DNA of 32,000 nt from Clostridium sp. GTDB lineage: Bacteria > Bacillota > Clostridia > Clostridiales > Clostridiaceae. The position numbers and the translations under genes are program-made. The notes below the pieces were generated by a model, which ran no database searches, was not told the DNA's origin, and saw nothing but the letters and a program-made list of their open reading frames with translations. Positions 309-19,915 of this stretch are shown one piece after another (positions within the stretch are counted from its first letter, which is position 1; the number at the start of each line of letters is the position of its first letter). The stretch lies in the NCBI RefSeq assembly GCF_050717515.1, contig NZ_JBOITL010000032.1:1-32000 (forward strand), in the 5' to 3' direction.

Positions 309-381
309 ATCTTTTATATCTCATTTATAATATGCAAATCAGTGTGTATACGTTGGAATAATATTGCTTAGTAAAATTAAA

Positions 382-436
382 TCTTAAGAAATCTTAAGGT
401 TTAATTACAATTTTCTTAAGTTTATTTTTGTAATAT
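382..436 (+). promoter_or_regulatory. Promoter copy 1 of the VanR-type regulon (upstream of vanY-1)
   Basis: TCTTAAG at 382-388 and 392-398 (10-bp phasing) and at 414-420, then TAATAT at 431-436 preceded by TG. There is no good -35, consistent with activator dependence. The same block recurs at 5235-5289 and 8538-8592. Confidence 0.6.
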
Positions 437-602
437 AAGAGAGTAAGGAATATGCAGTTTACTACGAGCACTATATAAGAAGTTTTAAAAGATTTTGTAT
501 GAAATTCTGAGGGGTGAGAATAAAAATTGCTCCTCCACGATTGAGATACAGTGGGGCCGAGGGTATCTGAGCTTACTAAAAATAAATAAGGAGGAATTTA
601 AG

Positions 603-1307
603 GTGAAAAAGAAAATTACAATAATTTTGATTTTAGGTATTATAGGGCTAATGTATATAAATAGTAGATATGGCGGGCTAAAAGTAATAGGGGGTGTAAT
701 TGAAAGGAGCACTTATGTTGAAACTGTTAAAGATATGTCTAATGAAAATAGCAATGTAGATGATGGTAACTTAATATTAGTGAATAGGAGAAATGAACTA
801 GATAAAGATTATGTTCCCAAGCATTTAAAAGTTCCAAATATCAGATTTTATTCTACCGTGTCAAATGAAGAAATGCAGATGGAAGAGGTTGCAGGCGATG
901 CGCTTAAAAAATTATTTGAAAAAAGTGAACAGGAGGGTATTATACTTTATGGACTATCTGGTTATAGATCTTATGCAACTCAAAAGGACTTATATGAAAA
1001 TAGTATTAAAACAAACGGAAAAGGATATACAGATAATTATGTGGCAATGGCAGGTAAAAGTGAACATCAATCAGGACTTGCAATGGATATAACTAATTCT
1101 AAAAAAAGTACAGGCTTTGAATATACAAAAGAAGGTATATGGCTTAAAGATAATGCTTATAAATTTGGATTTATAATAAGATATGGAAAAGGTAAAGAAG
1201 AGGTTACAGGTTATAATTATGAACCTTGGCATGTAAGGTATGTGGGGACTGAGAATTCAAAAAAAATTTACTTGAAGGATATTACTTTAGAGGAATTTTT
1301 AAAATAA
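603..1307 (+). CDS. vanY: VanY-like D-alanyl-D-alanine carboxypeptidase (peptidase M15B), membrane-anchored, copy 1
   Basis: The ORF track gives 495-1307. The likely start is GTG 603, 7 nt after AGGAGG (590-595). It has an N-terminal TM anchor (KKKITIILILGIIGLMYI). Zn-peptidase motifs SGYRSY, SEHQSGLAMD and EPWHVRYVG are present. It appears about 85% identical to the 8696-9424 copy (rough by-eye estimate). Confidence 0.85.
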   Translation: MKKKITIILILGIIGLMYINSRYGGLKVIGGVIERSTYVETVKDMSNENSNVDDGNLILVNRRNELDKDYVPKHLKVPNIRFYSTVSNEEMQMEEVAGDALKKLFEKSEQEGIILYGLSGYRSYATQKDLYENSIKTNGKGYTDNYVAMAGKSEHQSGLAMDITNSKKSTGFEYTKEGIWLKDNAYKFGFIIRYGKGKEEVTGYNYEPWHVRYVGTENSKKIYLKDITLEEFLK

Positions 1308-1313
1308 TCTATT

Positions 1314-1376
1314 AGATATGGGGAATGTGTAAAAATCTGTCCTACAAAGGCTATAAAAAAAGGATTTAAAATCTAG
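1314..1376 (+). pseudogene. 3'-end remnant of a paralogue of the 4Fe-4S membrane protein gene (compare 16137-16199)
   Basis: Reads RYGECVKICPTKAIKKGFKI*, versus RCGECVTACPTKAIKKGFRR* at the end of the 15369-16199 gene. The core CCTACAAAGGCTATAAAAAAAGGATTT is identical at the nucleotide level. A cluster-ligand Cys is replaced by Tyr and there is no upstream coding part. Confidence 0.6.
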
Positions 1377-1386
1377 GGTCTTAACT

Positions 1387-1647
1387 GTAGTATATAATAA
1401 GATTATTACTTTAACCTCTACAGAATTTGAAATGTTACACGTATTAGCTAATAATACAGGAAGAGTTTTTAGTGCAGAAGAAATATTTCAAAGAGTTTGG
1501 AAAGAAAAATATTATCAATCAAACAATACAGTTATGACTCACATGAGTAAACTAAGGGAAAAGCTTGATGCGGTTTTAGAGGGTGAGAAACTTATTCATA
1601 CTATATGGGGAGTAGGGTATAAAATTGAAAAGAAAACTTATATATAA
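1387..1647 (+). pseudogene. vanR: 5'-truncated vanR (response regulator) remnant: only the C-terminal part of the winged-helix domain remains
   Basis: VVYNKIITLTSTEFEMLHVLANN...HTIWGVGYKIEKKTYI matches residues about 151-236 of the intact regulator at 9641-10351. The whole receiver domain is missing, and homology starts abruptly at about 1387. Confidence 0.85.
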
Positions 1648-2728
1648 ATTAGAGTTAAAAATAGTTTTTAATATATTGATTACTTTCATATTATCAACAT
1701 TAACAATGGCAGTAATTTATATTATGTGGAAGTTTTTTTTGGCAATAGGTGCAAGCTATTTACAACAATTTTTAGATAAAATTTATATGGCAAGGCAATA
1801 TGTGGATTTTACAAAGATAATAATTGCACTATGGATAATTATTTTTATAAGTTATTCTCATTTATTCATTTACAAGAAGCTAAAGTACTTTGTAGAAGTT
1901 GATGAACATATGAAAGCTATAGCCGCGGGTAGGATAGATAAAAAAATACCAGAACAATCGAAAGCAGAGCTTCGGAAAATAGCTAAAAATATGAATGAAA
2001 TAATAAATAAATTAAATAAATCAATAGAAGAAGAGCGGAGAGCAGAACAAACAAAATATGAATTAATAACAAATGTATCTCATGATTTACGCACTCCATT
2101 AACCTCAATATTAGGGTATCTTGAACTCATAGATAATGATAAATATAAAGATGAAGTTGAACTTAGATATTATGTAAATATTGCCTATGAAAAATCAAAA
2201 CGATTGAATAATTTAATCAATGATTTATTTCAGTATACTATAATGAGAAATAGTACTTTAAGATTAAATAAAGAATTAATAAATGTAATTGAACTTTTAA
2301 ATCAACTGGTATTGGAATTTAGGCCACAGTTTAGAAAAGTAGATATAGAGTGTAGGACATATTTTTCGGAGGATAAACTCTTAATAATGGCTGATGCAGT
2401 TAAAATGGCTAGGGCATTTGAAAATCTAATTTCTAATGGTATGAACTATGGTAGTGGGACTGAGTATATTGACATATGTACTAGGAAAGAAAATAATAGT
2501 GCGATTATAGAGATAATTAATTATGGTGAGCCAATACCAAGTATAGATATACCTTTTATTTTTGAAAGGTTCTATAGAGTTGAAAAATCACGTTCAGGAT
2601 TTACTGGAGGTTCAGGATTAGGTCTTGCTATAACCAAAAGTATAATAGAGCTTCATGAAGGTGAAATTTTTGTTGAAAGCAATTATGAGAGAACTGCTTT
2701 TATAATTAAATTGCCCTTGGGTATTTAA
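1625..2728 (+). CDS. vanS: VanS-like sensor histidine kinase, copy 1 (no intact cognate regulator next to it)
   Basis: TTG start overlaps the vanR remnant. It has two N-terminal TM helices with a short loop and a HAMP-like linker. H-box NVSHDLRTPLTSILGY and ATPase motifs NLISNGMNYG and GGSGLGLAITKSIIELHEGEI are present. The C-terminal region resembles Tn1546 VanS (FEKFYR...GGAGLGLAI). Confidence 0.85.
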   Translation: MKRKLIYKLELKIVFNILITFILSTLTMAVIYIMWKFFLAIGASYLQQFLDKIYMARQYVDFTKIIIALWIIIFISYSHLFIYKKLKYFVEVDEHMKAIAAGRIDKKIPEQSKAELRKIAKNMNEIINKLNKSIEEERRAEQTKYELITNVSHDLRTPLTSILGYLELIDNDKYKDEVELRYYVNIAYEKSKRLNNLINDLFQYTIMRNSTLRLNKELINVIELLNQLVLEFRPQFRKVDIECRTYFSEDKLLIMADAVKMARAFENLISNGMNYGSGTEYIDICTRKENNSAIIEIINYGEPIPSIDIPFIFERFYRVEKSRSGFTGGSGLGLAITKSIIELHEGEIFVESNYERTAFIIKLPLGI

Positions 2729-2826
2729 TACAGTTTGAAAATATAGATCTAGATGTATGTTAATATGGTAATATAATTTGGATAGATAAAAATATGCCAA
2801 GTTGGATAAATAATATATTAAATGAG

Positions 2827-2865
2827 TAGCTAGTAAAACTTATTGTATTTACTAGCTATTTTTTT
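2827..2865 (+). terminator. Rho-independent terminator after vanS-1
   Basis: TAGCTAGTAAA (2827-2837) pairs with TTTACTAGCTA (2848-2858), followed by T7. Confidence 0.7.
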
Positions 2866-2913
2866 ATGTCCATTAGGCTAAAACTATTTACTGGTTTTAC
2901 CAAGTCACAGTTA

Positions 2914-2939
2914 CATTGGTGGGTCACATTGGTGGGTCA
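2914..2939. repeat. Perfect tandem duplication of a 13-bp unit, CATTGGTGGGTCA x2
   Basis: 2914-2926 and 2927-2939 are identical. The pair forms a locally GC-rich island in an AT-rich intergenic region upstream of the DUF218 gene. Confidence 0.9.
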
Positions 2940-3051
2940 AGCTTTAAATAATTAAACAAAAGAGTATATTTTAAAAGGTTAGTTTATGATATTCTTGTAG
3001 AAGATATTAATAAATATATAAACTAAGATTGAAGAAAGGAGGCCTTGTAAT

Positions 3052-4101
3052 ATGGAAGCAATAATTATTATAATGACTACAATAGTTACATTAATTGTAT
3101 TTTTAGCATCATTTTTAATAGATAAAAGAAGACTTATAAATGGTTTTTTATTTAATATATTTTTAATGTCACTATTTATGGCTACAACATATTGTGCATT
3201 CAAAACACAAAATCGTATTTTGATTGGTTTTGTACTTATTATATTTATCATATTAGCAATAGTACTATTCTTTGCCGTTTATGCACTGATAATTGCATTA
3301 CTAATTAATTCAAAAATTGTTATAAAGAAAGAAGGACGAAGTATTTCTAATTTGCTAACATTATTTTTAGCAATAGGCTTGATAGGTATATTAATATGGT
3401 CAGCTATTAAGCCAGAAAGATTTTTGCCAGATGAGGCAAATGCGATATTAAGTTGTATTTACTTAATAGGGGTCTACTATTGCATTGATGTATTTAATTT
3501 TTTGGTAGCATCTTTAATTTATCAATTTAATAAACCTAAGTTAAATCAAGAGTTTGTTATTGTATTGGGATGTGGATTAAATAAAGATAAAGTTACACCT
3601 CTACTTGCTAGTCGTATAAACAAAGGAATTGAATTTTACAAAAATCAAGCACAAGTAACTACACCTCCAAAAATAATTTTTTCAGGAGGTAAGGGTAATG
3701 ATGAGGAAATATCAGAAGCACTAGCTATGTGTAGATATGCAATTTCTAATGGAGTTCCAGAGGAAGATTGTATTATGGAGGATAAATCAGTAAATACATT
3801 GCAAAACATGAGATTTTCCAATAAGATTATGGAAAAAATAAAAGGCAGTAGTGAATATAATAGTATATTTATTACTAATAATTTTCATCTATTTAGAGCA
3901 GGAATTTATGCTAAAAAGGCAAAATTGAAATCTCAAGGAATAGGTTCCAAGACAGCAATGTTCTTCATTCCAAATGCATTAATTAGGGAATATATCGCAA
4001 TAGCAGTTATGTATAAAAAAAGACATATAATTGTAGTAAGTATTCTTTTAGCAATAGGTATTGTACTAGCCTTTGTTGAACATTTTGCTATAGTAGGTTA
4101 A
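3052..4101 (+). CDS. Polytopic membrane protein with C-terminal DUF218 (YdcF/ElyC/SanA family) domain
   Basis: RBS GGAGG lies 9 nt upstream of the ATG. About 6 predicted TM helices are followed by VIVLGCGL...LLASRINKGIEFY...IIFSGGKGNDEEISEALAM...SVNTLQNM...ITNNFHLFRA, the DUF218 signature. Confidence 0.7.
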   Translation: MEAIIIIMTTIVTLIVFLASFLIDKRRLINGFLFNIFLMSLFMATTYCAFKTQNRILIGFVLIIFIILAIVLFFAVYALIIALLINSKIVIKKEGRSISNLLTLFLAIGLIGILIWSAIKPERFLPDEANAILSCIYLIGVYYCIDVFNFLVASLIYQFNKPKLNQEFVIVLGCGLNKDKVTPLLASRINKGIEFYKNQAQVTTPPKIIFSGGKGNDEEISEALAMCRYAISNGVPEEDCIMEDKSVNTLQNMRFSNKIMEKIKGSSEYNSIFITNNFHLFRAGIYAKKAKLKSQGIGSKTAMFFIPNALIREYIAIAVMYKKRHIIVVSILLAIGIVLAFVEHFAIVG

Positions 4102-4118
4102 ATACATATAAAATAACA

Positions 4119-4271
4119 TTTCGTTGCGATTTCCCAGAAGGTTATAATGTGGACAATTACAAATTCTTTCAGGACACGCCAACAATGGTTCTAAAAGATA
4201 ATGACATCATTGATATAGGAGGACGTTCTATTCAAGTGCTGCATACGCCTGGTCATTCACCGGGATACTAA
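4119..4271 (+). pseudogene. Internal fragment of an MBL-fold metallo-hydrolase
   Basis: Reads FRCDFPEGYNVDNYKFFQDTPTMVLKDNDIIDIGGRSIQVLHTPGHSPGY*. HTPGHSPG is the MBL-fold motif 3 context. There is no start, a premature stop, and a possible out-of-frame continuation (GSGTFDYKD) to about 4330. It is locally GC-richer than its surroundings. Confidence 0.55.
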
Positions 4272-4476
4272 ATTGCAGCACGGCAGTGGCACTTTTGACT
4301 ACAAAGATTTTGCTATCTGGATATAATTATGTTGACACGCTTTTGACTGCTATGAATAATATGCTACGGCATAGTTGCCGTAACCCCTATTTAGTTGTAG
4401 TTATATTTTATAGTCTCCTTATAGAATCACATTTAATAATTGGTTCAAAATAGTATCATTGTGTTAATTACTGCAC

Positions 4477-4620
4477 TTACAAGTGCACAGGCACTAAATA
4501 TAATTGCTGCCATGCCCATTTGTTTTTTTCACGTTTATGCTTACTTACAAGCAGTCCAATGATACCTACACATAATATTACAAGTGCCAATATACTTCCT
4601 TCAATAAACCCTACTTCCAT
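4477..4620 (-). CDS. Hypothetical small membrane protein (47 aa), below the ORF-track cutoff
   Basis: The minus strand has AAAGGAGAGAGA followed 7 nt later by ATG. It reads MEVGFIEGSILALVILCVGIIGLLVSKHKREKNKWAWQQLYLVPVHL*, with one clear TM helix. No homology is recognised. Confidence 0.25.
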   Translation of the reverse strand: MEVGFIEGSILALVILCVGIIGLLVSKHKREKNKWAWQQLYLVPVHL

Positions 4621-4654
4621 TAATCTATCTCTCTCCTTTTATTCTAAATCCCTC

Positions 4655-5095
4655 TTATTTACATCCTTCCATATCTGAATAAAGGTCCACTGTTTTTTGT
4701 ATCAATAGATCACTCACTATATCAACACCTAGTTGTTTCATCATTTGCTGTAAAAATTTCAACCTATTAACTGTTTCCGAAAGATTACGCTCAAAAAGAA
4801 TAGGATTAATCCATACATTTAAAAGAATCATAAAAACTTCTGCACATTCACTAGGATAGTCTGTTGTAATAGATCCATCTGCTTTCCCTTGCAAAATGAT
4901 CTTAGCAATTTTAGGAGCATCCTTAATAATACAATCCTTAATGCCTGTTACTACAAACTGTGGGTTTTTAACTTGTGAAGTTAGGACATTATTCATAGAC
5001 TGTATATTATTATCTGATAAAATAAAGTCTAATATATTTACAAGTTTTTCTCTGGCATTATTTTCCTGTATGTTTATTAGTAAACCATTAAACAT
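4655..5095 (-). pseudogene. TetR/AcrR-like regulator lacking its N-terminal HTH domain (5'-truncated)
   Basis: The 146-aa ORF has a TetR C-terminal-domain-like helical pattern (KIILQGKADGSITTDYPSECAEVFMILLNVWINP). An in-frame stop lies 21 nt upstream of the first Met, and no HTH is encoded before the repeat boundary at 5154. Confidence 0.45.
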
Positions 5096-5153
5096 TTGAG
5101 TAGTATAATCAGACCTTTACCGCAAAGTGTAAATTTACAACGTTAGTACGCCG

Positions 5154-5367
5154 AGCAAAGGTCAACAGGTAAACGGTTTTTAATAGAAATATCAGCTAAA
5201 CCATTTTGAAAAATTGATAAATTTTAAATTGTAATCTTAAGAAATCTTAAGGTTTAATTACAATTTTCTTAAACTTATTTTTGTAATATAAGAGAGTAAG
5301 GAATATGCATTTTACTTTATTGAAAAATTTTCAAATAAAAAAAATGTGTTATTTACTTAGATTTAAG
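5154..5367 (+). repeat. Left direct repeat (214 nt) carrying promoter copy 2
   Basis: Aligns by eye at about 90% identity with 8456-8665, from AGCAAAGGTCAACAGG to ATTTAAG. Confidence 0.85.
5235..5289 (+). promoter_or_regulatory. Promoter copy 2 of the VanR-type regulon (upstream of vanH)
   Basis: TCTTAAG at 5235-5241 and 5245-5251, TCTTAAA at 5267-5273, TAATAT at 5284-5289. The spacing is identical to copies 1 and 3. Confidence 0.6.
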
Positions 5368-5450
5368 AAAATATTTTACTTCTACGTTAATTTGAAATAG
5401 TATGCGATAAAAGCAAAGAAAAATGTAATATGAAAGGAGAAATCTAAATC

Positions 5451-6410
5451 ATGGCAAAAATAAAAATTACAATTTATGGATGCACACAGGACGAGGCCGT
5501 TTTGTTCCGAGAAATAGCGCCTCGCTTTGGAATTATGCCAACTATCACAGATGCAGTGGTATCTGAAGCTAATATTAAACTGGCATTTGGAAATCGATGC
5601 ATCAGCGTTGGTCATAAAACTCAAATCACAAATTCCATTCTTCTTGCGCTCAGCCAAGCTGGTGTAAGATATATCTCTACAAGAAGTATTGGATATAACC
5701 ATATTAATGTAAAATACGCAAAGAGCGTTGGCATTTCCATTGAAAATGTCACTTATTCGCCTGATAGCGTGGCTGATTACACATTAATGCTCATGCTGAT
5801 GGCGGTACGAAATACAAAATCCATTATTAGCCGTGCAGATATTTATGATTTCAGATTGAATGATGTACGCGGGAAAGAATTACGTGATATGACCATTGGC
5901 GTAATTGGAACAGGACGCATTGGCGCTGCGGTTATTGAAAGGCTGAGGGGCTTTGGCTGCAATATATTAGCCTATGACCATCGGTCCATATCCTCTGATG
6001 ATTACGTTCCTCTTAATGAATTGTTACAGCAGAGCGATATTATAACGCTCCATACACCACTTAAAGAGGATACAAACCATCTTATTAATCGTCAACGTAT
6101 CGAGCAGATGAAGCACGGCGCGTTTATTATCAATACTGGACGCGGTTCACTTATCGATACCGAGGCTCTTATTTCAGCGTTGGAAAGTGGTAAACTAGGC
6201 GGTGCGGCATTGGATGTACTCGAAGGAGAGGAAGGAATATTCTACTTTGACTACAGAAAAAAAACCATTGAAAACAAACTGCTGTTGCGGTTACATAAAC
6301 TAACGAATGTGATTATTACTCCGCACACCGCCTATTACACAGAACACGCCTTGAAAGATACCGTTGAAAATACTATTATCAATTGCTTGAAATTTGAAAG
6401 GAGAGAGTAG
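5451..6410 (+). CDS. vanH: VanH, D-specific 2-hydroxyacid (pyruvate to D-lactate) dehydrogenase
   Basis: Full-length by-eye match to Tn1546 VanH (YGC.QDEA, CISVGHK, YISTRSIG.NHI, YSPDSVADYT, GTG.IG.AVIERLRGFGC, GKLGGAALDVLEGEE, NVIITPHTAYYTE, FERR). GC is clearly above that of the flanks. Confidence 0.92.
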   Translation: MAKIKITIYGCTQDEAVLFREIAPRFGIMPTITDAVVSEANIKLAFGNRCISVGHKTQITNSILLALSQAGVRYISTRSIGYNHINVKYAKSVGISIENVTYSPDSVADYTLMLMLMAVRNTKSIISRADIYDFRLNDVRGKELRDMTIGVIGTGRIGAAVIERLRGFGCNILAYDHRSISSDDYVPLNELLQQSDIITLHTPLKEDTNHLINRQRIEQMKHGAFIINTGRGSLIDTEALISALESGKLGGAALDVLEGEEGIFYFDYRKKTIENKLLLRLHKLTNVIITPHTAYYTEHALKDTVENTIINCLKFERRE

Positions 6411-6411
6411 C

Positions 6412-7452
6412 ATGGATAGGTTAAAAATCGCAATTATATTTGGGGGTTGTTCCGAGGAACATCCTATCTCCGTTAAATCAGCACAAGAGGTCGCAAAAAA
6501 CCTTGATATGGAAAAGTATGAACCGTTCTATATCGGGATTACGAAAAATGGCGTTTGGAAGCTTTGTCACTGCCCTGACGCAAATTGGGAAAATGGAAGT
6601 TGCTGTCCGGCTATACTGTCACCGGACAGAAGCGTACACGGATTGCTTGTTCTGGAGCAGGGACAATACAAAACAATTCGTTTGGATATGGTGTTTCCCG
6701 TCCTGCATGGCAAACTTGGCGAGGATGGTGCGATGCAAGGTTTGTTGGAGCTTTCCGGCATCCCCTATGTAGGCTGCGATGTCCAAAGTTCTGCTCTGTG
6801 TATGGACAAATCCCTTGCTTTTATTGTCGCTAGAAACGCGGAAGTTGCTACGCCAAATTTCTGGACTGTCATGGCCAACGAGAATATTGATGCCGACCAG
6901 CTTACTTATCCCGTTTTTGTAAAGCCGGCCCGTTCAGGTTCATCTTTCGGCATCACTAAGGTATGTCGAAAAGAAGAATTGCTGAGTGCGATGGAAACCG
7001 CAAGACAGTATGACTCGAAGGTGTTGATTGAAGAGGCTATCGTCGGCAGCGAGGTAGGATGTGCGATATTAGGGAACGATATGGATTTGATTGTAGGCGA
7101 GGTAGATCAAATTTGTCTATCTCATGGTTTTTTCAAAATCCATCAGGAGAATAAGCCTGAAAACGGTTCTGAAAACTCAACAGTAATAGTTCCTGCTGAC
7201 ATTTCGTCAGAGGCGCGCTTGCTTGTTCAGGAGACAGCAAAAACCGTATATCGCGCTTTGGGATGCAGGGGACTTTCGCGGGTAGATATGTTCCTTACGG
7301 AAGATGGAAAAGTAATACTTAACGAGGTTAATACTTTGCCTGGTATGACCTCATACAGCCGTTATCCGAGAATGATGGTGGCCGCAGGTTTGCCGTTTGC
7401 CGAAGTGATCGACCGGATTATATCGTTGACAGTGAAAGGAGAAAGGCGATGA
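6412..7452 (+). CDS. VanA/B/D-class D-alanine--(R)-lactate ligase (subtype not assignable by eye)
   Basis: Start ATG 6412 lies 7 nt after AGGAGAG. IIFGGCSEEH, YIGITKNGVWK, HGK.GEDGA.QGL.ELSGIPYVGCD.QSSA.CMDKSL, YPVFVKPARSGSSFG, EVGCAILGN, GEVDQI..SHGFFKIHQE..PE.GSEN and LNEVNTLPG.TSYSRYPRMM are present. The His in KIHQE is the depsipeptide-ligase signature. Several segments (GSEVGCAILGN, HGFFKIHQE) look closest to VanD. Confidence 0.9.
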   Translation: MDRLKIAIIFGGCSEEHPISVKSAQEVAKNLDMEKYEPFYIGITKNGVWKLCHCPDANWENGSCCPAILSPDRSVHGLLVLEQGQYKTIRLDMVFPVLHGKLGEDGAMQGLLELSGIPYVGCDVQSSALCMDKSLAFIVARNAEVATPNFWTVMANENIDADQLTYPVFVKPARSGSSFGITKVCRKEELLSAMETARQYDSKVLIEEAIVGSEVGCAILGNDMDLIVGEVDQICLSHGFFKIHQENKPENGSENSTVIVPADISSEARLLVQETAKTVYRALGCRGLSRVDMFLTEDGKVILNEVNTLPGMTSYSRYPRMMVAAGLPFAEVIDRIISLTVKGERR

Positions 7453-8057
7453 AAAATGATTTTGTCTTTGTAGACGAATTTGTACACGGAATACGTTGGG
7501 ATGCTAAATACGCCACATGGGATAATTTTACCGGCAAACTGGTGGACGGATATGTAGCAAATCGAATTGTCGGTACGAGAGCTTTGTGCGCAGCCCTGGA
7601 AAAAGCACGAGAAAACGCCGCTTCCTTTGGCTTTGGCTTGCTTCTTTGGGATGGTTATCGCCCTCAATGCGCCGTAGATTGTTTTCTGCGCTGGTCAAAA
7701 CAGCCGGAAAATGGCCAGACGAAACTAAAACACTATCCGAATATTGACAAAACCGAGATAGTTGAAAAAGGATATGTGGCCGCTAAGTCGGGGCACAGTC
7801 GCGGCAGCGCAATTGACTTAACCCTCTATCATTTAGCTACCGGTACACTTGTTCCAATGGGCGGCGACTTTGATTTGATGGATTCAGTCTCACATCATGG
7901 AGCAAAAAGAATCACGCAAGTCGAAGCGAGAAACCGTCAATACCTTTGTTCTATCATGGAGGCCTGCGGTTTTGTTTCATATGATTGCGAGTGGTGGCAC
8001 TACACACTGAAACACGAACCTTATCCAAACACTTATTTTGATTTTCCCATCACATAG
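7449..8057 (+). CDS. vanX: VanX D-Ala-D-Ala dipeptidase
   Basis: ATGA overlap with the ligase stop. VHG.RWDAKYATWDNFTGK.VDGY, LLLWDGYRP, SGHSRGSAIDLTLY, EWWHY and PYPN.YFDFP match Tn1546 VanX throughout. Confidence 0.92.
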   Translation: MKNDFVFVDEFVHGIRWDAKYATWDNFTGKLVDGYVANRIVGTRALCAALEKARENAASFGFGLLLWDGYRPQCAVDCFLRWSKQPENGQTKLKHYPNIDKTEIVEKGYVAAKSGHSRGSAIDLTLYHLATGTLVPMGGDFDLMDSVSHHGAKRITQVEARNRQYLCSIMEACGFVSYDCEWWHYTLKHEPYPNTYFDFPIT

Positions 8058-8249
8058 TTGAGGCGGTCAAAAAAATTGCCAAAAGCATTGAAAGTACTTA
8101 TAGCAGCTAATATTTAGGCAACATAATCTATAAAGGTACTGTATTATTTCAATAACTAAATTTTAGATACATAAATATTTAATATTAACAGTTTCATGTA
8201 AACGATGGTTTGCAAGGAGCTGTTATATTTTATTTTAGAAAAGAGGTAA

Positions 8250-8402
8250 GTTCATAAAAAATTTAAACATAGCCTAACTGAATTCTCGGATATAATAGAT
8301 AAAGCAACCCCTGAGGGATTAAAGAATGCTAAGGCTAAAGGTATTAAGTTGGGTAGACCTAACAGGATTTTACAGAAGACTTTAAAAAAATATGAATTAT
8401 AA
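8250..8402 (+). pseudogene. C-terminal remnant of a serine recombinase (resolvase/invertase family)
   Basis: Reads ...SLTEFSDIIDKATPEGLKNAKAKGIKLGRPNRILQKTLKKYEL*. This resembles the AEFER...ERT.EGL..AKA.G...GRP linker region. There is no catalytic N-terminal domain, and an in-frame stop lies at 8247-8249. Confidence 0.5.
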
Positions 8403-8455
8403 AAGAGGGGTGTAACCTTCTTTTTTTATGGAATGAATATATATGCTTGAAAGCA

Positions 8456-8665
8456 AGCAAAGGTCAACAGGCAAAACAGTTTCTAATAGAAACATCAGCT
8501 AAACCATTTTGAAAAATGGATAAAATTTAAATTGTAATCTTAAGAAATCTTAAGGTTTAATTACAATTTTCTTAAACTCATTTTTGTATTATAAGAAAGT
8601 AAGGAATATGCATTTTACTTTGTTGAAGAATTTTCAAAAAAAATGTGTTATCACTTGAATTTAAG
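8456..8665 (+). repeat. Right direct repeat (210 nt) carrying promoter copy 3
   Basis: About 90% identical to 5154-5367. It continues directly into the vanY-2 ribosome-binding site. Confidence 0.85.
8538..8592 (+). promoter_or_regulatory. Promoter copy 3 of the VanR-type regulon (upstream of vanY-2/vanR/vanS)
   Basis: TCTTAAG at 8538-8544 and 8548-8554, TCTTAAA at 8570-8576, TATTAT at 8587-8592. Confidence 0.6.
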
Positions 8666-8695: not shown

Positions 8696-9424
8696 GTGAA
8701 AAAGAAAACTGGAGTGATTTTGATTTTAGGAATTGTATGCTTAATGTACATAAACAGCAAATATGGTAGTATAAAAGTTATAGGGGATGTAATTGAAAGG
8801 AAAACTTATATTGAATCTATTAAAGATATGTCTAATGAGAATAGCAATGTAGATGATGGAGAGTTAATATTAGTGAATAGAAAAACTACTTTGGATAAGG
8901 ATTATGTTCCACATAATTTAAAAGTTGCAAAGGTTAATATTTATCCTACCGTTTCAGATGAAGAAATGCAAATGGAAGGAAATGCAGCGGATGCACTTAA
9001 AAAACTATTTGATCAAGGTAAGGAGGAAGGAATTATACTTTATGCATTATCTGGCTATAGATCTTATGCAACTCAAAAGGACTTATATGAAAATAGTATT
9101 AAAACAAATGGAAAAGGGTATACATATAAGTACGTGGCAATAGCAGGTAAAAGTGAACATCAATCAGGACTTGCAATGGATATAACTAATGCTAAAAAGA
9201 GTACAGGTTTTGAAAACACTAAAGAAGGTAAATGGCTTCAAAAGAATGCTTATAAATTTGGATTTATAATAAGATATGGAAAAGGAAAAGAAGATATTAC
9301 AGGTTATAATTATGAACCTTGGCATGCAAGGTATGTAGGTGCTGAGAATTCAGAGAAAATTTACTCAAAGGATATTACTTTGGAGGAGTTTTTAAAATCT
9401 GTAACAATCAAAGTATATAATTAA
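8696..9424 (+). CDS. vanY: VanY-like D-alanyl-D-alanine carboxypeptidase (M15B), copy 2
   Basis: The ORF track gives 8645-9424. The likely start is GTG 8696 after AGGAGG (8682-8687). It has the same TM anchor and the SGYRSY, SEHQSGLAMD and EPWHARYVG motifs. Its C-terminus is 8 aa longer than copy 1. Confidence 0.85.
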   Translation: MKKKTGVILILGIVCLMYINSKYGSIKVIGDVIERKTYIESIKDMSNENSNVDDGELILVNRKTTLDKDYVPHNLKVAKVNIYPTVSDEEMQMEGNAADALKKLFDQGKEEGIILYALSGYRSYATQKDLYENSIKTNGKGYTYKYVAIAGKSEHQSGLAMDITNAKKSTGFENTKEGKWLQKNAYKFGFIIRYGKGKEDITGYNYEPWHARYVGAENSEKIYSKDITLEEFLKSVTIKVYN

Positions 9425-9640: not shown

Positions 9641-10351
9641 ATGGGTAAAAATATATTAGTTGTAGATGATGATAAAGAAATAGTTAATTTAATTGAAATA
9701 TATTTAACTAATGAAGGACATAATATTTACAAAGCATATGATGGTGAACAAGCTTTGCAGGTTATAGATAATTATAATATAAATCTTATAATACTAGATA
9801 TAATGATGCCTAAAATTGATGGTATAGAAGTGTGTAACAAAGTTCGCGAGAAACTTAATATACCTATAATTATGTTAAGTGCTAAAAATCAAGATTCAGA
9901 TAAAATAAAAGGGTTATTGTCAGGAGCTGATGATTATATGGTAAAACCCTTTAATCCTTTAGAACTTATGGTTAGAGTTAAGTCTATATTTAGAAGGATT
10001 TACGAATTCGATAAAAATAGTGATGAATTAAAAGATAGAGATACTATAGTTATAGGACCACTTAAAATTAAAAAATCCACTCATCAGGTAGAAGTATATA
10101 ATAAGATTATTGCTTTAACTTCTACAGAATTTGAAATATTACACGTCCTAGCTAATAATCCAGGGAGAGTTTTTAGTGCAGAAGAAATATTTCAAAGAGT
10201 TTGGAAGGAAAAATATTATCAATCTAATAATACAGTTATGACTCACATGAGTAAATTAAGAGATAAGCTTGATGAAGTTTTAGATGGTGAGAAACTTATT
10301 CATACTATATGGGGAGTAGGGTATAAAATTGAAAAGAAAACTTATATATAA
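9641..10351 (+). CDS. vanR: VanR-like OmpR-family response regulator (the only intact copy)
   Basis: Receiver domain (VVDDD, phospho-acceptor context LIILDIMMP, SAKN, DDYMVKPF) plus a winged helix ending NNTVMTHMSKLRDKL...TIWGVGYKIEKK. Compare Tn1546 VanR, which ends NNTITVHIRHLREKM...TVWGVGYKIEK. Confidence 0.88.
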   Translation: MGKNILVVDDDKEIVNLIEIYLTNEGHNIYKAYDGEQALQVIDNYNINLIILDIMMPKIDGIEVCNKVREKLNIPIIMLSAKNQDSDKIKGLLSGADDYMVKPFNPLELMVRVKSIFRRIYEFDKNSDELKDRDTIVIGPLKIKKSTHQVEVYNKIIALTSTEFEILHVLANNPGRVFSAEEIFQRVWKEKYYQSNNTVMTHMSKLRDKLDEVLDGEKLIHTIWGVGYKIEKKTYI

Positions 10352-11432
10352 ATTAGAGTTAAAAGTAGTTTTTAATATATTTCTTGTTTTTCTATTATCA
10401 GCATTAACAATGGCAGTATTTTATATTATGTGGAAGTTTTTTTTGGTAATATGTACAATCTATTCACAACGATTTTTAGATATAATTTATAGGCTAAGGC
10501 AATATGTCGATTTTATAAATATAACAAGTGCACTATGGATAATAATTTTTATAAGTTATTCCCATTTATTGCTTTACAAGAAAATTAAGTACTTTGTAGA
10601 AGTTGATGAACATATGAAAGCTATAGCCGCGGGTAGGATAGATAAAAAAATACCAGAACAATCGAAAGCAGAGCTTGGGAAAATGGCTAAAAATATGAAT
10701 GAAATAATAGAAAAATTAAATAAATCAATAGAAGAAGAGCGGAGAGCAGAACAAACAAAATATGAATTAATAACAAATGTATCTCATGATTTACGCACTC
10801 CATTAACCTCAATATTAGGGTATCTTGAACTAATAGATAAGGATAGATATGAAGATGAAGTTAGGCTTAGATACTATGTAAGTATTGCCTATGAAAAATC
10901 AAAGCGATTGAATACTTTAATTGATGACTTATTTCAATATACTATAATGAGAAATAGTACTTTAAAATTAAAAAAAGAATCAATAAACGTAATTGAACTT
11001 TTAAATCAAGTGGTATTGGAATTTAATCCACAGTTTAGAAAAAAAAATATAGAATGTAGGACATATTTTTCGGAGGATAAACTCTTAATAATGGCTGATG
11101 CAGCTAAATTAGCTAGAGCATTTGAAAATCTAATTTCTAACGGTATGAACTATGGAAGTGGGACTGAGTATATTGACATATGTACTAGGAAAGAAAATAA
11201 TAGTGCGGTTATAGAGGTAATTAATTATGGTGAGCCAATACCAAGTATAGATGTACCTTTTATTTTTGAAAGGTTCTATAGAGTTGAAAAGTCACGTTCG
11301 GAATTTGCTGGAGGATCAGGACTCGGTCTTGCTATAACTAAAAGTATAATCGAGCTTCATGAGGGTGAAATTTTTGTTGAAAGCAATTATGAGAGAACTG
11401 TTTTTATAATTAAATTGCCCTTGGGTAGTTAA
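10329..11432 (+). CDS. vanS: VanS-like sensor histidine kinase, copy 2
   Basis: TTG start overlaps the vanR 3' end. Same architecture and motifs as 1625-2728. The HAMP/DHp region is nearly identical at nucleotide level, while the N-terminal sensor part is much more diverged. Confidence 0.88.
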   Translation: MKRKLIYKLELKVVFNIFLVFLLSALTMAVFYIMWKFFLVICTIYSQRFLDIIYRLRQYVDFINITSALWIIIFISYSHLLLYKKIKYFVEVDEHMKAIAAGRIDKKIPEQSKAELGKMAKNMNEIIEKLNKSIEEERRAEQTKYELITNVSHDLRTPLTSILGYLELIDKDRYEDEVRLRYYVSIAYEKSKRLNTLIDDLFQYTIMRNSTLKLKKESINVIELLNQVVLEFNPQFRKKNIECRTYFSEDKLLIMADAAKLARAFENLISNGMNYGSGTEYIDICTRKENNSAVIEVINYGEPIPSIDVPFIFERFYRVEKSRSEFAGGSGLGLAITKSIIELHEGEIFVESNYERTVFIIKLPLGS

Positions 11433-11477
11433 TAAGATTTTAGAAATTACTTATGAAATATGATTTTGATGTAAAAG

Positions 11478-11515
11478 TAGCAAATGGATAGTGTAAATAT
11501 TTATTTGCTATTTTT
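11478..11515 (+). terminator. Rho-independent terminator after vanS-2
   Basis: TAGCAAAT (11478-11485) pairs with ATTTGCTA (11503-11510), followed by T5. Confidence 0.55.
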
Positions 11516-11633
11516 ATTTGAAATTATGAACCTTACATACTTGTCATATTCCTGTAAGCTTTACAGATAGTAAGTTATACATTATCATTATAGACTATAT
11601 GTATGTTTATAATTAGTTTCGAAGGAGTGGTAA

Positions 11634-12485
11634 ATAATCGATATAATATTTTTAGTAAAAGCAATTATAATAGCAATAGTAGAAGGGCTAACGGAGTTTA
11701 TCCCAGTATCTTCTACAGGACACATGATATTAGTTGGATGGGCAATTGGGTTTCAAGGGAAATTTGCAGAGATGTTTGAAGTTGTAATTCAACTTGGAGC
11801 AATAATGGCAGTGGTTGTTTTATATTGGAAGAAGATTAAAGAAAGTTTAATAGAATTTTTTAAGTTTATATTTACTAAAGGAAAAGAGGGAAAGAAAGGA
11901 TTTAAATTTGGGGTAAATGTTATTATAGCATCTATTCCCATGGGAATTGTAGGAGTATTATTATACGATAAAATCAAATCAAAATTTGTACCAGAAGCTG
12001 TCATAGTAGGATTTATAGTTGGTGGATTATTGTTATTAATAATTGAAAAGAGATTTGGGGGTAGGGATCATAAAGTAGAAAGTATAGATAACATAACACC
12101 TGTACAAGCATTTAAAATTGGGTTATTACAACTTCTTTCTGTATGGCCAGGAATGTCAAGAAGTGCGTCTACAATCATGGGTGGGTGGATTGCTGGATTA
12201 ACAACACCAATAGCAGCAGAGTTTTCATTTTTCATAGCCATTCCCGCTATGATAGGGGCAACAGGTAAGGATTTATTTGAATTTGATTATTCTGTAATGA
12301 CGAAAACATTATGGATTGCATTAATAGTTGGATTTATTGTAGCCTTCATAGTATCTATAATAGTTATGAAAAAATTTGTTGATTACTTGAAAAAGAAGCC
12401 GATGAAAGTTTTTGCAGTATATAGAATAGTAATAGGAAGTCTACTTGGGATATTAGTATTAACTAAGATTATTATTTTAACATAG
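11634..12485 (+). CDS. uppP: Undecaprenyl-diphosphate phosphatase UppP/BacA; the start codon is apparently non-canonical
   Basis: The ORF track starts at Met 11724. The conserved N-terminal motif VEGLTEFIPVSSTGH is encoded in frame upstream (11679-11723). The frame is open only back to TAA 11631-11633 and holds no ATG/GTG/TTG in between. RBS GGAGTGG at 11624-11630 precedes ATA 11634 and ATC 11637. Confidence 0.8.
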   Translation: MIDIIFLVKAIIIAIVEGLTEFIPVSSTGHMILVGWAIGFQGKFAEMFEVVIQLGAIMAVVVLYWKKIKESLIEFFKFIFTKGKEGKKGFKFGVNVIIASIPMGIVGVLLYDKIKSKFVPEAVIVGFIVGGLLLLIIEKRFGGRDHKVESIDNITPVQAFKIGLLQLLSVWPGMSRSASTIMGGWIAGLTTPIAAEFSFFIAIPAMIGATGKDLFEFDYSVMTKTLWIALIVGFIVAFIVSIIVMKKFVDYLKKKPMKVFAVYRIVIGSLLGILVLTKIIILT

Positions 12486-12529
12486 TTGTTGATTTGAGAG
12501 AAAATTATAGAGAGGATGGTTAAATTAAA

Positions 12530-13102
12530 ATGGTTTATTATTTAGCAAATTCTATAAATTTAGGATGGGATCAATTTTTTATTGCCCTTTCAAAATCTTC
12601 AGGCAAAATTCCTCAGCTTTTATTAACCGCATTAGTTTTTATTATACTATATTATTTCAATAAAAAAGTAGAAGCTATTTGCTGTGTATTTAATATCGGA
12701 TTTACTGGTTTTATCAACTTGATACTTAAAAACACAGTAAAAAGAGATAGACCCATGGGAATATGGTTAATGAAGGCTGATGGCTATAGTTTTCCTAGCG
12801 GTCATTCTTCTATTTCTACGGCTATAGGAATTGTACTTATTTATATTATATTTAAACAAATAAAGAATAAAAAAATCGCTTATTTAATGAGTGGGTTTAT
12901 ATTTGCATATTTAATTCTTGTAGGAATTAGTAGGGTTTATGTTGGAGTGCACTATCCGGGAGATGTTTTTGGGGGATGGTTTATAGCTGGAATATGGTCT
13001 TATATTACTATTATAGTTTATAAGTTTTGTATGAAGAAAGGCCTAGATAAATATTTAGATAAACATTTTACCATTAAATTCAATATTTTCAGAAGTAAAT
13101 AA
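12530..13102 (+). CDS. PAP2-family (BcrC-like) membrane phosphatase
   Basis: KRDRP, PSGHS and SRVYVGVHYPGDV are the three PAP2 acid-phosphatase motifs, in a protein with about 5 TM helices. Confidence 0.8.
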   Translation: MVYYLANSINLGWDQFFIALSKSSGKIPQLLLTALVFIILYYFNKKVEAICCVFNIGFTGFINLILKNTVKRDRPMGIWLMKADGYSFPSGHSSISTAIGIVLIYIIFKQIKNKKIAYLMSGFIFAYLILVGISRVYVGVHYPGDVFGGWFIAGIWSYITIIVYKFCMKKGLDKYLDKHFTIKFNIFRSK

Positions 13103-13141
13103 AATCTATTTAGTTTTAATTAAAACCATTTGAATCACTTT

Positions 13142-13168
13142 AGCCCACGAATTATTCGTGGGCTTTTT
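13142..13168 (+). terminator. Strong rho-independent terminator after the PAP2 gene
   Basis: AGCCCACGAA-TTA-TTCGTGGGCT (perfect 10-bp stem) followed by T5. Confidence 0.85.
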
Positions 13169-13246
13169 CATGTGGTAAAATGCAAATACTTAGGTTTATA
13201 AATAAACATATTTGTTCAAAGGGTATTTTATTAATTGGTATAAAAT

Positions 13247-13744
13247 TTATTTTGTAAGCTTAATTATTATATCCTTATGTTGAGAATATTTATTTAAGAG
13301 AGTATCTCTTTCAAATATCTCAAAATCTTTAAAGTCAAAGCCAGGGGATACCATACATCCAACAAGCGAGTACCCTGGAATATTCATAGCAGAACCAAAA
13401 ATGTAATTTTTAGGTACCAAAAACTGTGGAGTTTCTCCATTTTCTATATTAAGACCTAGTTGCTTAGTCGTAAGTTCTCCATTTGGACTTATCATATATA
13501 TTGTAAGAGGGGAGCCTGCATGGTAGTACCACATTTCATCTGATTTTAATCTATGAAAACTTGAGATTTCGCCATCTCTTAATAAAAAATAAATACTAGT
13601 CCAAAGTGTTCTTTCACCTTCAAACTTAGTTTTAAGGTTATTGGAGCTAATATTTTCACAAGAGCAGAAGCTACTTTTGTAAAAACCACCTTCAGGATGA
13701 GCTTCCATATTTAATGTGTCAATAAAGTATTGGGATGAGTACAT
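13247..13744 (-). CDS. Cupin-fold protein (DUF985-like)
   Basis: 165-aa ORF with MEAHPEGGFYK...FHRLKSDEMWYYH.G, typical of the DUF985 cupin family. GGAG lies upstream of the ATG on the minus strand. Confidence 0.65.
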   Translation of the reverse strand: MYSSQYFIDTLNMEAHPEGGFYKSSFCSCENISSNNLKTKFEGERTLWTSIYFLLRDGEISSFHRLKSDEMWYYHAGSPLTIYMISPNGELTTKQLGLNIENGETPQFLVPKNYIFGSAMNIPGYSLVGCMVSPGFDFKDFEIFERDTLLNKYSQHKDIIIKLTK

Positions 13745-13823
13745 AATTTATCTCCTTTGTTAAAAAAAATTTGATTGTATTTAATTATAATCAAATAAGT
13801 CAAAAGTTACAAGGTTATTTAAG

Positions 13824-13851
13824 GTGCCACCCACGTGGCAAGTGGCAAGTT
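13824..13851. repeat. 28-bp GC-rich element, copy a (GTGCCACCCACGTGGCAAGTGGCAAGTT)
   Basis: Exact reverse complement of 16215-16242. It contains the palindrome CCACGTGG and can fold as GCCAC-TTG-CCAC/GTGG-GTGGC. Confidence 0.9.
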
Positions 13852-13868
13852 ATGAAAAGAAATATTTG

Positions 13869-13929
13869 TAAGGTTTATTTAAGGTTAATGTTATCAAGAG
13901 GTAAGGTTAACCTTATATAATGTATTTAT
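13869..13929 (+). promoter_or_regulatory. TAAGGTT-box promoter, copy a (upstream of the TlpA-like operon)
   Basis: 61 nt identical to 16246-16306 except for one base. TAAGGTT occurs twice at 11-bp phasing, followed by the perfect 14-bp palindrome TAAGGTTAACCTTA (13902-13915) and TATAAT at 13916-13921. Confidence 0.65.
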
Positions 13930-13974
13930 TGTATAAGAATAAAAATAGAACTTGCAAATAAAGGAGAATTGATT

Positions 13975-15069
13975 ATGAAAAGAAAATTTCTAACAATTTT
14001 AATAGTAGGAGTGATTTGTATATCCATGGTGGCTTGTAATAAGTCTACGGAGGAAAAATCAAAACAAGCTCAAAATAAAACGGAACAAACAGAAACTAAA
14101 AAAGAAGATGCAGGAAAGAAATTTGAAAATTTAGGTATTGAATATAAATTACCAGATAAGTGGAAAGCAAAAGAGAAAAATATAGATTTACTTGGAATTG
14201 ATGGAGGAGAAAATATAATAGGACAGCTTATGTTTAGCTTTACATCTACTGAAACTATGAACAAGATTGAGAAATCAAATGAGGATTCAAAAAAAATCCC
14301 AGAAACAGACAAAGTAAAAATGGAGAAATTTCAAACAGAATTTATGAATTTATTAAAAGAGAGTAAAGAATTATGTACTATTGTAACTATAGATAAAAGT
14401 AAAACCGCAGGCAAAGCGCAAAAAGAATTGTTCGCCAAGTTTAAAAATAAGGATTTATTAGGTAAAGAAGGTAACTTTGAAATTTACTTATTACATAATG
14501 ATGTACCTGAGGAAAGTGGATTATCGGATAAATCTAAAAAAGATTTTAAAGAAGTATATGGAGAAATTAAAAATTTTAAAAGTTTGATTAAAACATCTAA
14601 ACCAGTATCAGAAAAAGAAAAATTAAACAAATATAAGAAGTTTGAGTTTAAAACTAAAACTTTAGATGGAAAAGAAATAGATAGTAGTATTTTTAAAGAT
14701 AGTAAGCTTACTATGATAAATATATGGGCTACATATTGTGGACCATGTATAGAAGAAATGCCAGATCTTCAAAAGCTTTACGAAGAAGTTAAGGGGGAGA
14801 AGATTAATGTGATTGGTCTTGTTTCAGACACACCTGACGCGGATAATGAAGAATTAGCTAAACAAATTTTACAAAAAAAAGGTGCCAAGTTTACTAATAT
14901 TATTCCAGATGAAAGCATTAAAAATAATATATTGAAAGATGTTTCAGGGGTTCCTACTACATTATTTGTTGACAGTAAAGGTAATATTGTTGGAGACTTT
15001 ATAGTTGGTTCACATAGTAAAGAAGACTATAAGAAAGAAATAGAAGCTAGGCTTAAAAGTATAAAATAG
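13975..15069 (+). CDS. Lipoprotein with C-terminal TlpA/ResA-like thioredoxin domain and a long N-terminal domain of unknown function
   Basis: Start ATG 13975 lies 6 nt after AAAGGAGAA. Signal peptide with lipobox (ISMVAC). About 230 K/E-rich residues with no family I recognise, then INIWATYCGPCIEEMPDL (CGPC active site) and GVPTTLFVD (cis-Pro loop). Confidence 0.75.
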   Translation: MKRKFLTILIVGVICISMVACNKSTEEKSKQAQNKTEQTETKKEDAGKKFENLGIEYKLPDKWKAKEKNIDLLGIDGGENIIGQLMFSFTSTETMNKIEKSNEDSKKIPETDKVKMEKFQTEFMNLLKESKELCTIVTIDKSKTAGKAQKELFAKFKNKDLLGKEGNFEIYLLHNDVPEESGLSDKSKKDFKEVYGEIKNFKSLIKTSKPVSEKEKLNKYKKFEFKTKTLDGKEIDSSIFKDSKLTMINIWATYCGPCIEEMPDLQKLYEEVKGEKINVIGLVSDTPDADNEELAKQILQKKGAKFTNIIPDESIKNNILKDVSGVPTTLFVDSKGNIVGDFIVGSHSKEDYKKEIEARLKSIK

Positions 15070-15190
15070 AAGTGTAAATGAATTATAGTTCAGAAGTAAA
15101 CTACCTCACCTTATATTAGGTGGGGTATATATCATAATTGGGGTTATTAATTTTAAGAGTAAAAATTTTATTATAAGCTAATTATAGGAA

Positions 15191-15376
15191 ATGAAAAAAA
15201 GATGGGATGTGAATTTTATGAATACAAATAGGCTTACTAAAAGCCAAGGATTAATGAAATATGGGATTCTAACAATGAGTATTTTATTTATTTCTACTGG
15301 AATATACAGAAATGAAGTAAGAATTGTATTCAGAAAAGCAATAAATATATGTTTGGAGTGTATAGGCATTGGATAA
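15191..15376 (+). CDS. Small membrane protein with C-terminal CXXC (CD1871A-family-like); start uncertain
   Basis: One TM helix (YGILTMSILFISTGIY) and a C-terminal INICLECIGIG. Alternative starts are M10 and M22. Its stop overlaps the TTG start of the next gene by 8 nt. Confidence 0.55.
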   Translation: MKKRWDVNFMNTNRLTKSQGLMKYGILTMSILFISTGIYRNEVRIVFRKAINICLECIGIG

Positions 15377-16199: not shown

Positions 16200-16214
16200 C
16201 AGCACTTTTTCTTA

Positions 16215-16242
16215 AACTTGCCACTTGCCACGTGGGTGGCAC
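16215..16242. repeat. 28-bp GC-rich element, copy b (inverted relative to copy a); possibly doubles as a terminator
   Basis: AACTTGCCACTTGCCACGTGGGTGGCAC starts 16 nt after the 4Fe-4S gene stop and is followed by TTTT. Confidence 0.9.
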
Positions 16243-16245
16243 TTT

Positions 16246-16306
16246 TAAGGTTTGTTTAAGGTTAATGTTATCAAGAGGTAAGGTTAACCTTATATAATGT
16301 ATTTAT
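16246..16306 (+). promoter_or_regulatory. TAAGGTT-box promoter, copy b (upstream of the ABC-2 transporter operon)
   Basis: Same 61-nt block as 13869-13929. TATAAT at 16293-16298. Confidence 0.65.
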
Positions 16307-19139: not shown

Positions 19140-19193
19140 AAGTATTTAAGACAAGATCTTTATGTGATGATTTAATTTTAAGGGGTGATAATT

Positions 19194-19913: not shown

Positions 19914-19915
19914 AG

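Follow-up and report, generated by a model that had tools for sequence, protein, structure and literature searches.

At promoters activated by PhoB, the pho boxes are repeats phased by about one helical turn, and the proximal repeat ends 10 bp before the -10 element and replaces the -35 element. Among the regulators of van genes, VanR-G of Enterococcus faecalis leaves a footprint over three 12-bp direct repeats with the consensus (T/C)CGTANGAAA(T/A)T (Depardieu et al. 2015, PMC4405338). These sites were stated to be analogous to those of VanR-A, of which P_R has one and P_H has two, and both VanR-A and VanR-G are activators (PMC4405338). We took the VanR-A box from the sequence of Tn1546 (Enterococcus faecium) and its description in PMC4405338. 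In Tn1546, P_vanR (upstream of vanR) contains TCTTAAGAAATTCTTAG, and P_vanH reads TTTTAGG-(11)-TCTCAAG-(22)-TCTTAGG (box sequences TTTTAGGAAAA, TCTCAAGG, and TCTTAGGAAAT), with TAATAT 12 nucleotides (nt) further on. Here, we describe a promoter block with similar boxes that occurs three times in a 32,000-nt stretch of Clostridium sp. contig NZ_JBOITL010000032.1 (referred to below as the window), ahead of vanY-1/vanS-1, vanH-ligase-vanX, and vanY-2/vanR/vanS-2. The three copies are as follows:

372..463, plus strand, promoter copy 1 (P_vanY-1): boxes at 382-388, 392-398, and 414-420; -10 element TAATAT at 431-436; predicted start at ~443
5154..5367, plus strand, promoter copy 2 (P_vanH): boxes at 5235-5241, 5245-5251, and 5267-5273; -10 element TAATAT at 5284-5289; left member of a 215-nt direct repeat
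8456..8665, plus strand, promoter copy 3 (P_vanY-2): boxes at 8538-8544, 8548-8554, and 8570-8576; -10 element TATTAT at 8587-8592; right member of the 215-nt direct repeat

Boxes 1 and 2 are TCTTAAG in all three copies and are phased by exactly 10 bp. Box 3 sits 22 bp beyond box 2 and reads TCTTAAG at 414 and TCTTAAA at 5267 and 8570. The gap from box 3 to the -10 hexamer is exactly 10 nt in 3/3 copies, and no copy has a TTGACA-like hexamer 16 to 18 bp upstream of TAATAT/TATTAT. An earlier sequence-only reading had described this layout, including the want of a convincing -35 element, and all of its coordinates for boxes and -10 elements proved correct. It had also placed a repeated block of about 55 nt at 382-436, 5235-5289, and 8538-8592. 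The positions are right, but the length is not: the segment common to the three copies spans 92 nt (372-463; 90 to 93% identity), and copies 2 and 3 share 215 nt (5154-5367 and 8456-8665; 90.7% identity). Exact matches to TCTTAAG-N3-TCTTAAG occur at three sites in the window (382-398, 5235-5251, and 8538-8554), compared with 0.02 expected from dinucleotide-preserving shuffles. The copy 1 promoter is 93% identical to the vanY promoter of Clostridium tagluense A121. The three blocks are paralogues that arose by duplication, and their copy number is no evidence of function by itself.

A 10-bp inverted repeat (AAATTGTAAT/ATTACAATTT) is exact at 5226-5235/5257-5266 and at 8529-8538/8560-8569 and, as had been noted, is absent in that form from copy 1, which carries a separate 15-nt dyad (AATTAAATCTTAAGA/TCTTAAGGTTTAATT). 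It had been argued that the boxes, and not this palindrome, are the conserved part. The argument holds for the left arm and in distant taxa but fails for the right arm (ATTAYAATTT), which is as invariant as the boxes within Clostridium. The phasing of the boxes by one turn (10 bp) is real, but their description as tandem direct repeats is only one reading, since CTTAAG is a palindrome; TCTTAAGA is likewise a palindrome, of 8 bp. A repeat search pointed to a fourth copy at 13240-13304. We rejected it as a chance match because it falls in the 3'-terminal part of a cupin gene and contains none of the boxes. We also rejected leader peptides: the ATG codons at 452, 5305, and 8608 begin open reading frames (ORFs) of 8, 31, and 16 codons, lengths that are unrelated, with AAGGA just 2 nt from the ATG. 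A leader riboswitch found no support in Rfam, which gave no matches anywhere in the window, and the three leaders fold no better than shuffled sequences (z = -0.6, 0.1, and -0.4).

The boxes match experimentally characterised VanR sites. TCTTAAGAAAT of the window is identical to the Tn1546 P_vanR box and matches the VanR-G consensus at 9 of the 11 specified positions, and when Tn1546 P_vanH is aligned with the three promoters (P1-P3), each of its boxes faces its counterpart. The box spacing is 11 and 22 bp in Tn1546 P_vanH and 10 and 22 bp here, and TAATAT follows in both. A single VanR activates both the regulatory and the resistance promoters of Tn1546 (PMC4405338), as we propose here. The two systems differ in that the core of the Tn1546 box is TCTTAGG, whereas that of the window is TCTTAAG, a perfect palindrome, and in that the gap between box 3 and the -10 element is 12 nt in Tn1546 and 10 nt in the window. 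Unlike Tn1546, the window has the order vanHAX-vanY-vanR-vanS, with vanR behind vanY, and has three promoters rather than two, together with a second, regulator-less vanY-vanS unit. P_YG of the E. faecalis vanG operon shares with the window promoters the VanR box consensus and a poor -35 element, and vanG is under positive control by phosphorylated VanR (PMC4405338). However, the three 12-bp sites of P_YG occupy -100 to -43, on the upstream side of the -35 element, whereas the predicted sites in the window lie at -61 to -23, and no gene resembling that for the vanG repressor VanU was seen in the window. With pho boxes, the window promoters share the helical phasing and the 10-nt gap between the last box and the -10 element. 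In contrast to pho boxes, they have boxes 10 and 22 bp apart, a non-box unit between boxes 2 and 3, and a palindromic box core whose orientation is ambiguous.

Every sequence-testable feature of VanR-dependent van promoters is present in the three copies: a 12-bp VanR box (TCTTA[A/G]GAAAT-like), boxes upstream or in the place of a weak -35 element, and linked vanR-vanS with van genes downstream. The proximal repeat ends 10 nt before the -10 element, as in class II activation, in the three copies, in 9 further Clostridium promoters, and in 14/26 more distant loci (see below). By these matches, the TCTTAAG boxes are of the canonical VanR type. This agrees with the earlier assignment, as does the retention of the geometry from box 3 to the -10 element across species and before unrelated genes. 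The further claim of that reading, that the promoter defines the regulon, reaches beyond what a stretch of 32 kb can show.

We consider it probable that a single VanR-dependent activator promoter of PhoB type (class II), which is native to the Clostridium tagluense group, gave rise to the three paralogous blocks. Genes were assigned with NCBIfam and Pfam profiles, and the three units are composed as follows:

603..1307, plus strand, vanY-1, D,D-carboxypeptidase of the VanY family; GTG at 603 is the likely start codon and follows the ribosome-binding site AGGAGG
1387..1647, plus strand, vanR remnant with codons ~151-236 only (winged-helix part); longest ORF at 1432-1647, 71 amino acids, no Shine-Dalgarno sequence
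1625..2728, plus strand, vanS-1, histidine kinase, 87% identical to VanS-2; its own regulator is gone
2826..2866, plus strand, intrinsic terminator at the end of unit 1, hairpin and T-run, z = -3.9
5451-6410, plus strand, vanH
6394-7452, plus strand, VanI-type D-Ala-D-Lac ligase gene
7449-8057, plus strand, vanX
8697..9424, plus strand, vanY-2; GTG start at 8697 after AAGGAGG
9641..10351, plus strand, vanR, sole intact OmpR/PhoB-family VanR-like regulator of the locus; best match VanR family; proposed binder of the boxes
10329..11432, plus strand, vanS-2, cognate histidine kinase
11473..11520, plus strand, intrinsic terminator at the end of unit 3, hairpin and T-run, z = -5.8

Phosphorylated VanR (9641-10351) would bind the TCTTAAG boxes, with one dimer on boxes 1 and 2 (about -61 to -45) and a second that covers box 3 (about -29 to -23) and probably also a degenerate unit immediately upstream of it. 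Bound VanR would take the place of the missing -35 element and recruit RNA polymerase to TAATAT/TATTAT 10 nt downstream. A single VanR would co-activate all three units, in the case of vanY-2/vanR/vanS-2 by positive autoregulation, and both VanS paralogues could signal to it. The P_vanH copy would be a duplicate of the native vanY promoter that places an acquired VanI-type vanHAX under the resident two-component system. We infer VanR binding, the arrangement of the dimers, the start sites, activation, the inducer, and the feeding of VanR by VanS-1 from sequence. The absence of a -35 element and the presence of terminators bounding units 1 and 3 count in support of the model.

Positions 1389-2730 match 10093-11434 at 92.7% identity. 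Therefore, the copy 1 vanR retains only codons ~151-236, and the locus has no intact vanR other than that at 9641-10351, as had been claimed. The remnant ORF (ATG at 1432) overlaps the start of vanS-1 and lacks the N-terminal beta-sheet of the domain. The remnant is probably inert, although a receiver-less DNA-binding fragment made from it could in principle compete for the boxes. VanS-1 and VanS-2 differ mostly in the N-terminal membrane part. The three resistance proteins exceed their curated NCBIfam cut-offs (714 versus 700 with the VanI model for the ligase, 560 versus 540 for VanH, and 394 versus 320 for VanX). The proposed division into three transcription units is upheld by the terminators after vanS-1 and vanS-2. 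No terminator was evident directly after vanX, and transcripts of unit 2 may run on into unit 3.

We aligned 12 promoters from at least seven Clostridium genomes: three from the window, three from Clostridium sp. CM028, two from Clostridium argentinense, and one each from FP2, C. tagluense CP077605, UBA2485, and UBA6640. A 40-nt block, AATCTTAAGAA.TCTTAAG..TT.ATTA.AATTTTCTTAA, is invariant in all 12, as is the TA..AT of the -10 element; the flanks are unrelated, and the 10-nt spacer is variable. The 12 promoters precede six kinds of operon, namely vanY, vanH, S11 carboxypeptidase, vanW-ligase-racemase, a VanG-type ligase operon, and a redoxin/Fer4_5 operon. The VanG-type ligase encoded downstream of the block scored 564 bits against a cut-off of 495.

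The three boxes alone, used as a query against one genome per species of GTDB, matched 28 loci, where about one match is expected from the size of the collection by our estimate, which assumes uniform base composition. In most of the 28 loci, a co-oriented ORF begins ~30 to 220 nt downstream. Of the 26 loci that do not belong to the lineage of the window, 14 have TAnnnT at exactly 10 nt past box 3, frequently with an extended TG. Other offsets have TAnnnT in 0 to 3 loci, except for offset 21 (7 loci, including L007, L013, and L025, which have an extra box 11 nt further on). Genes for VanR-like response regulators (RRs) directly adjoin the block in L012, L016, L026, and L028. Near-orthologues of VanR in Clostridium acetireducens (77% identical) and Clostridium difficile (64% identical, in a vanY-RR-histidine kinase [HK] arrangement) are adjoined by TAAG-11-TAAG-22-TAAG-10-TAnnnT. 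As a control for specificity, we used 80 metagenomic loci (590 kb) with RR-HK pairs of 36 to 57% identity and no van genes; these pairs served solely as a control because they are not orthologues. Tandem CTTA[AG]G boxes were found in 0 of the 80 loci. The relaxed architecture was absent from 77 of the 80, and the other three represent one sequence family, upstream of an RR with 43% identity. Three independent lines point to conservation of the block as a reflection of function, and not merely of recent duplication.

The strict three-box pattern has a single match in C. tagluense A121 (at vanY-vanR-vanS), two in C. argentinense, and three in Clostridiaceae C70; the regulons of these genomes look small. 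Outside Bacillota (L004, L017, and others), arrays of at least four TCTTAAG boxes with 10-bp phasing occur in contigs of Cyclobacteriaceae, Verrucomicrobia, and Kiritimatiellaeota, without a -10 element at +10.

Several observations weigh against VanR as the activator at these boxes. VanR, VanS, and VanY have van families as their best matches, all under the curated cut-offs (290 versus 350 for VanR, 266 versus 400 for VanS-2, and 260 versus 400 for VanS-1), and VanR and VanS here are, by these scores, clostridial VanR/VanS-like proteins outside the curated enterococcal-type families. In L113 and L115, two VanZ-RR-HK loci with near-orthologues of VanR, the TCTTAAG arrays have another geometry. 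The model assumes head-to-tail binding of VanR; the orientation of the boxes is ambiguous because CTTAAG is palindromic, an N3 of AAT/ATT turns boxes 1 and 2 into a perfect 18-bp palindrome in several taxa, and box 3 suits the VanR consensus better on the opposite strand (CTTAAGAAAAT) than on the forward strand. Finally, the inter-box stretch TTTAATTAYAATTT, which contains TACAAT/TATAAT, varies no more than the boxes do in Clostridium, and VanR binding leaves this invariance unexplained. It could be explained if the working promoter were instead a sigma-70-like pair embedded in the block, with TTAAGA in box 1 as the -35 element, a 16-bp spacer, and TACAAT (TATAAT in C. argentinense) as the -10 element. 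Boxes 1 and 2 would then overlap the -35 element and the spacer and box 3 would lie over the start, so that the boxes would act as an operator (for repression or anti-activation), or else there would be two tandem promoters. Such a pair (9/12) is found at 384-411 and 5237-5264, and the sole variable inter-box base in the 12 Clostridium promoters is a C/T within the hexamer, either of which gives a good -10 element. However, the inter-box stretch is not conserved outside Clostridium and does not resemble a -10 element beyond Clostridium sensu stricto, whereas 14 of 26 loci keep TAnnnT at 10 nt; Tn1546 P_vanH, with a similar box layout, has no internal hexamer; and an operator is at odds with the activator role of VanR-A and VanR-G (PMC4405338). 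We consider it unlikely that the embedded pair is the working promoter, a second, basal promoter, or the site of another protein.

The boxes could also be bound by a protein other than VanR, either another OmpR-family regulator or an unrelated dimer that reads CTTAAG palindromes, with VanR controlling some units or none. Two further OmpR-type regulators with near-identical recognition helices are encoded in the window (at 19185-19913 and at 22898-23545), and an attempt to assign the boxes by recognition helix was abandoned, as those of VanR, VanR-A, and these two regulators are too similar to discriminate; this, too, counts against a firm assignment to VanR. Many matches to the box pattern in the collection have no VanR-like gene within 8 kb, and boxes 1 and 2 can be read as a palindrome. 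On the other hand, the box equals the VanR-A and VanR-G sites, the block always lies beside vanY-vanR-vanS in the C. tagluense group, and the regulator at 19185 adjoins a distinct promoter family of its own with TAAGGTT boxes, so that we regard control by another protein as less probable still than the embedded promoter. It is highly improbable that the block has no regulatory role and recurs only as a by-product of segmental duplication, riding with vanY/vanRS DNA. Copies 1 and 3 do head paralogous vanY-(vanR)-vanS units (86 to 93% identical), and copies 2 and 3 form the 215-nt direct repeat, but the block is an island: copies 1 and 3 do not align before 372 or in the leader after 463. Moreover, the block is invariant between species despite unrelated flanks and downstream genes, and the position of the -10 element is kept in distant taxa.

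Activation by VanR as proposed above would extend to genes of foreign origin. The host locus is 91 to 93% identical to that of C. tagluense A121, which identifies a Clostridium of the C. tagluense group; a 100% identical VanR occurs in a Clostridium sp. metagenome-assembled genome (P0001) and a 98% identical one in CM028. In the relatives A121, CP077605, and FP2, the promoter occurs once, before vanY-vanR-vanS only. The VanI-type vanHAX genes are foreign: their G+C content is 38 to 52%, compared with 22 to 30% in the surroundings, and the ligase shares 74.6% identity with one from Embleya. Together with a resolvase remnant, these genes are bracketed by the 215-nt direct repeats of the native promoter (5154-8665). 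The repeats, the resolvase remnant, and fragments of MBL-fold and TetR_C genes upstream look like the scar of an insertion or recombination. In CM028 (L116; positions 8908, 12483, and 14195), the same promoter is likewise found in three places, namely ahead of vanY, ahead of a gene for an S11 D,D-carboxypeptidase, and ahead of vanW-ligase-alanine racemase genes, and a vanG-type module stands in place of vanHAX. We infer that the native promoter was duplicated to wire the imported genes.

A gene-level survey described vanHAXYRS with actinobacterial-type VanHA in the low-GC clostridial host C. tagluense CS002 (PMC9689679). The window resembles CS002 and the Desulfitobacterium hafniense VanI cluster in the order vanHAX-vanY-vanR-vanS and in the undecaprenyl-diphosphate phosphatase gene downstream (PMC9689679). 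Unlike CS002, it has an extra vanY-vanR'-vanS unit upstream and lacks the MurE gene reported for CS002; promoters were not mentioned in that survey (PMC9689679). We tentatively suggest, as a possibility that we rate nearly as high as its converse, that the clostridial VanR-box promoter is a portable wiring cassette and that the resident vanY-vanR-vanS genes, which stand alone in A121, CP077605, and FP2, are a landing pad for imported modules. Such modules, each with a copy of the resident promoter placed ahead of it, may include the actinobacterial-type vanHAX here, the vanG-type set of CM028, and the S11-vanG operon of C. argentinense. If so, incoming resistance genes would be inducible at once, and the layout box-10/11-box-22-box-10-(-10) would be a Bacillota-wide signature usable to predict VanR-type regulons.

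Other genes and remnants lie between and beyond the three units:

3052-4101, gene for a DUF218 (SanA/ElyC-like) membrane protein, after the vanS-1 terminator
4149-4271, MBL-fold gene fragment
4655-5095, minus strand, TetR_C gene fragment
~8290-8402, resolvase remnant (serine-recombinase C-terminal part)
11724-13164, bacA (undecaprenyl-diphosphatase) and PAP2 phosphatase genes, directly after vanS-2; own promoter-like site at 11560-11588 and strong terminator at 13142-13164

The DUF218 family is linked to vancomycin sensitivity in E. coli. No VanR boxes were found upstream of the DUF218 gene at 3052-4101. A stretch of ~7.6 kb with AraC, Mur ligase, and symporter genes and an RR-ABC-HK set lies between vanS and bacA in FP2 and C. 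tagluense CP077605.

The window contains a second repeated promoter family, T(G/T)TAAGGTTT(A/G)TTTAAGGTTAATGTTATCAAGAGGTAAGGTTAACCTTATATAAT, at 13867-13921 and 16244-16298. Its geometry, TAAG-11-TAAG-22-TAAG-10 nt-TATAAT, is that of the VanR-box promoters, but its boxes are TAAGGTT. Downstream of one copy is a redoxin lipoprotein/Fer4_5 operon, and downstream of the other are an ORF of 339 amino acids, genes for an ABC transporter, and an RR/HK pair of OmpR type (19185-21331). The RR of this pair, 38% identical to VanR, is likely the regulator of the family. An element of ~24 nt with CCACGTGG (GCCACCCACGTGGCAAGTGGCAAG) lies upstream of both copies in opposite orientations (13815-13848 and 16210-16240). 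The redoxin/Fer4_5 pair (13969-16199 in the window; also in L005, L027, and L117) appears to have been rewired between species. It has the TAAGGTT-type promoter in the window; C. argentinense and UBA2485 have a separate canonical TCTTAAG block for it, and in Clostridium sp. FP2 it lies within the vanY-...-vanR-vanS operon.

The regulatory design described here is ordinary, in that specialists would expect VanR boxes before van genes, and it leaves the understanding of VanR action unchanged. What it adds is modest: the exact conserved geometry, the duplication of the promoter before a foreign vanHAX, and the parallel case of CM028. The van cluster of a food-spoilage Clostridium, previously catalogued only at the gene level, thereby gains a concrete, testable promoter model. 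Screens of Bacillota genomes for VanR-type regulons could take the conserved geometry of three boxes and -10 element as their query. The duplication of a native VanR-box promoter upstream of foreign D-Ala-D-Lac genes suggests a route by which such genes may become inducible in a new host.

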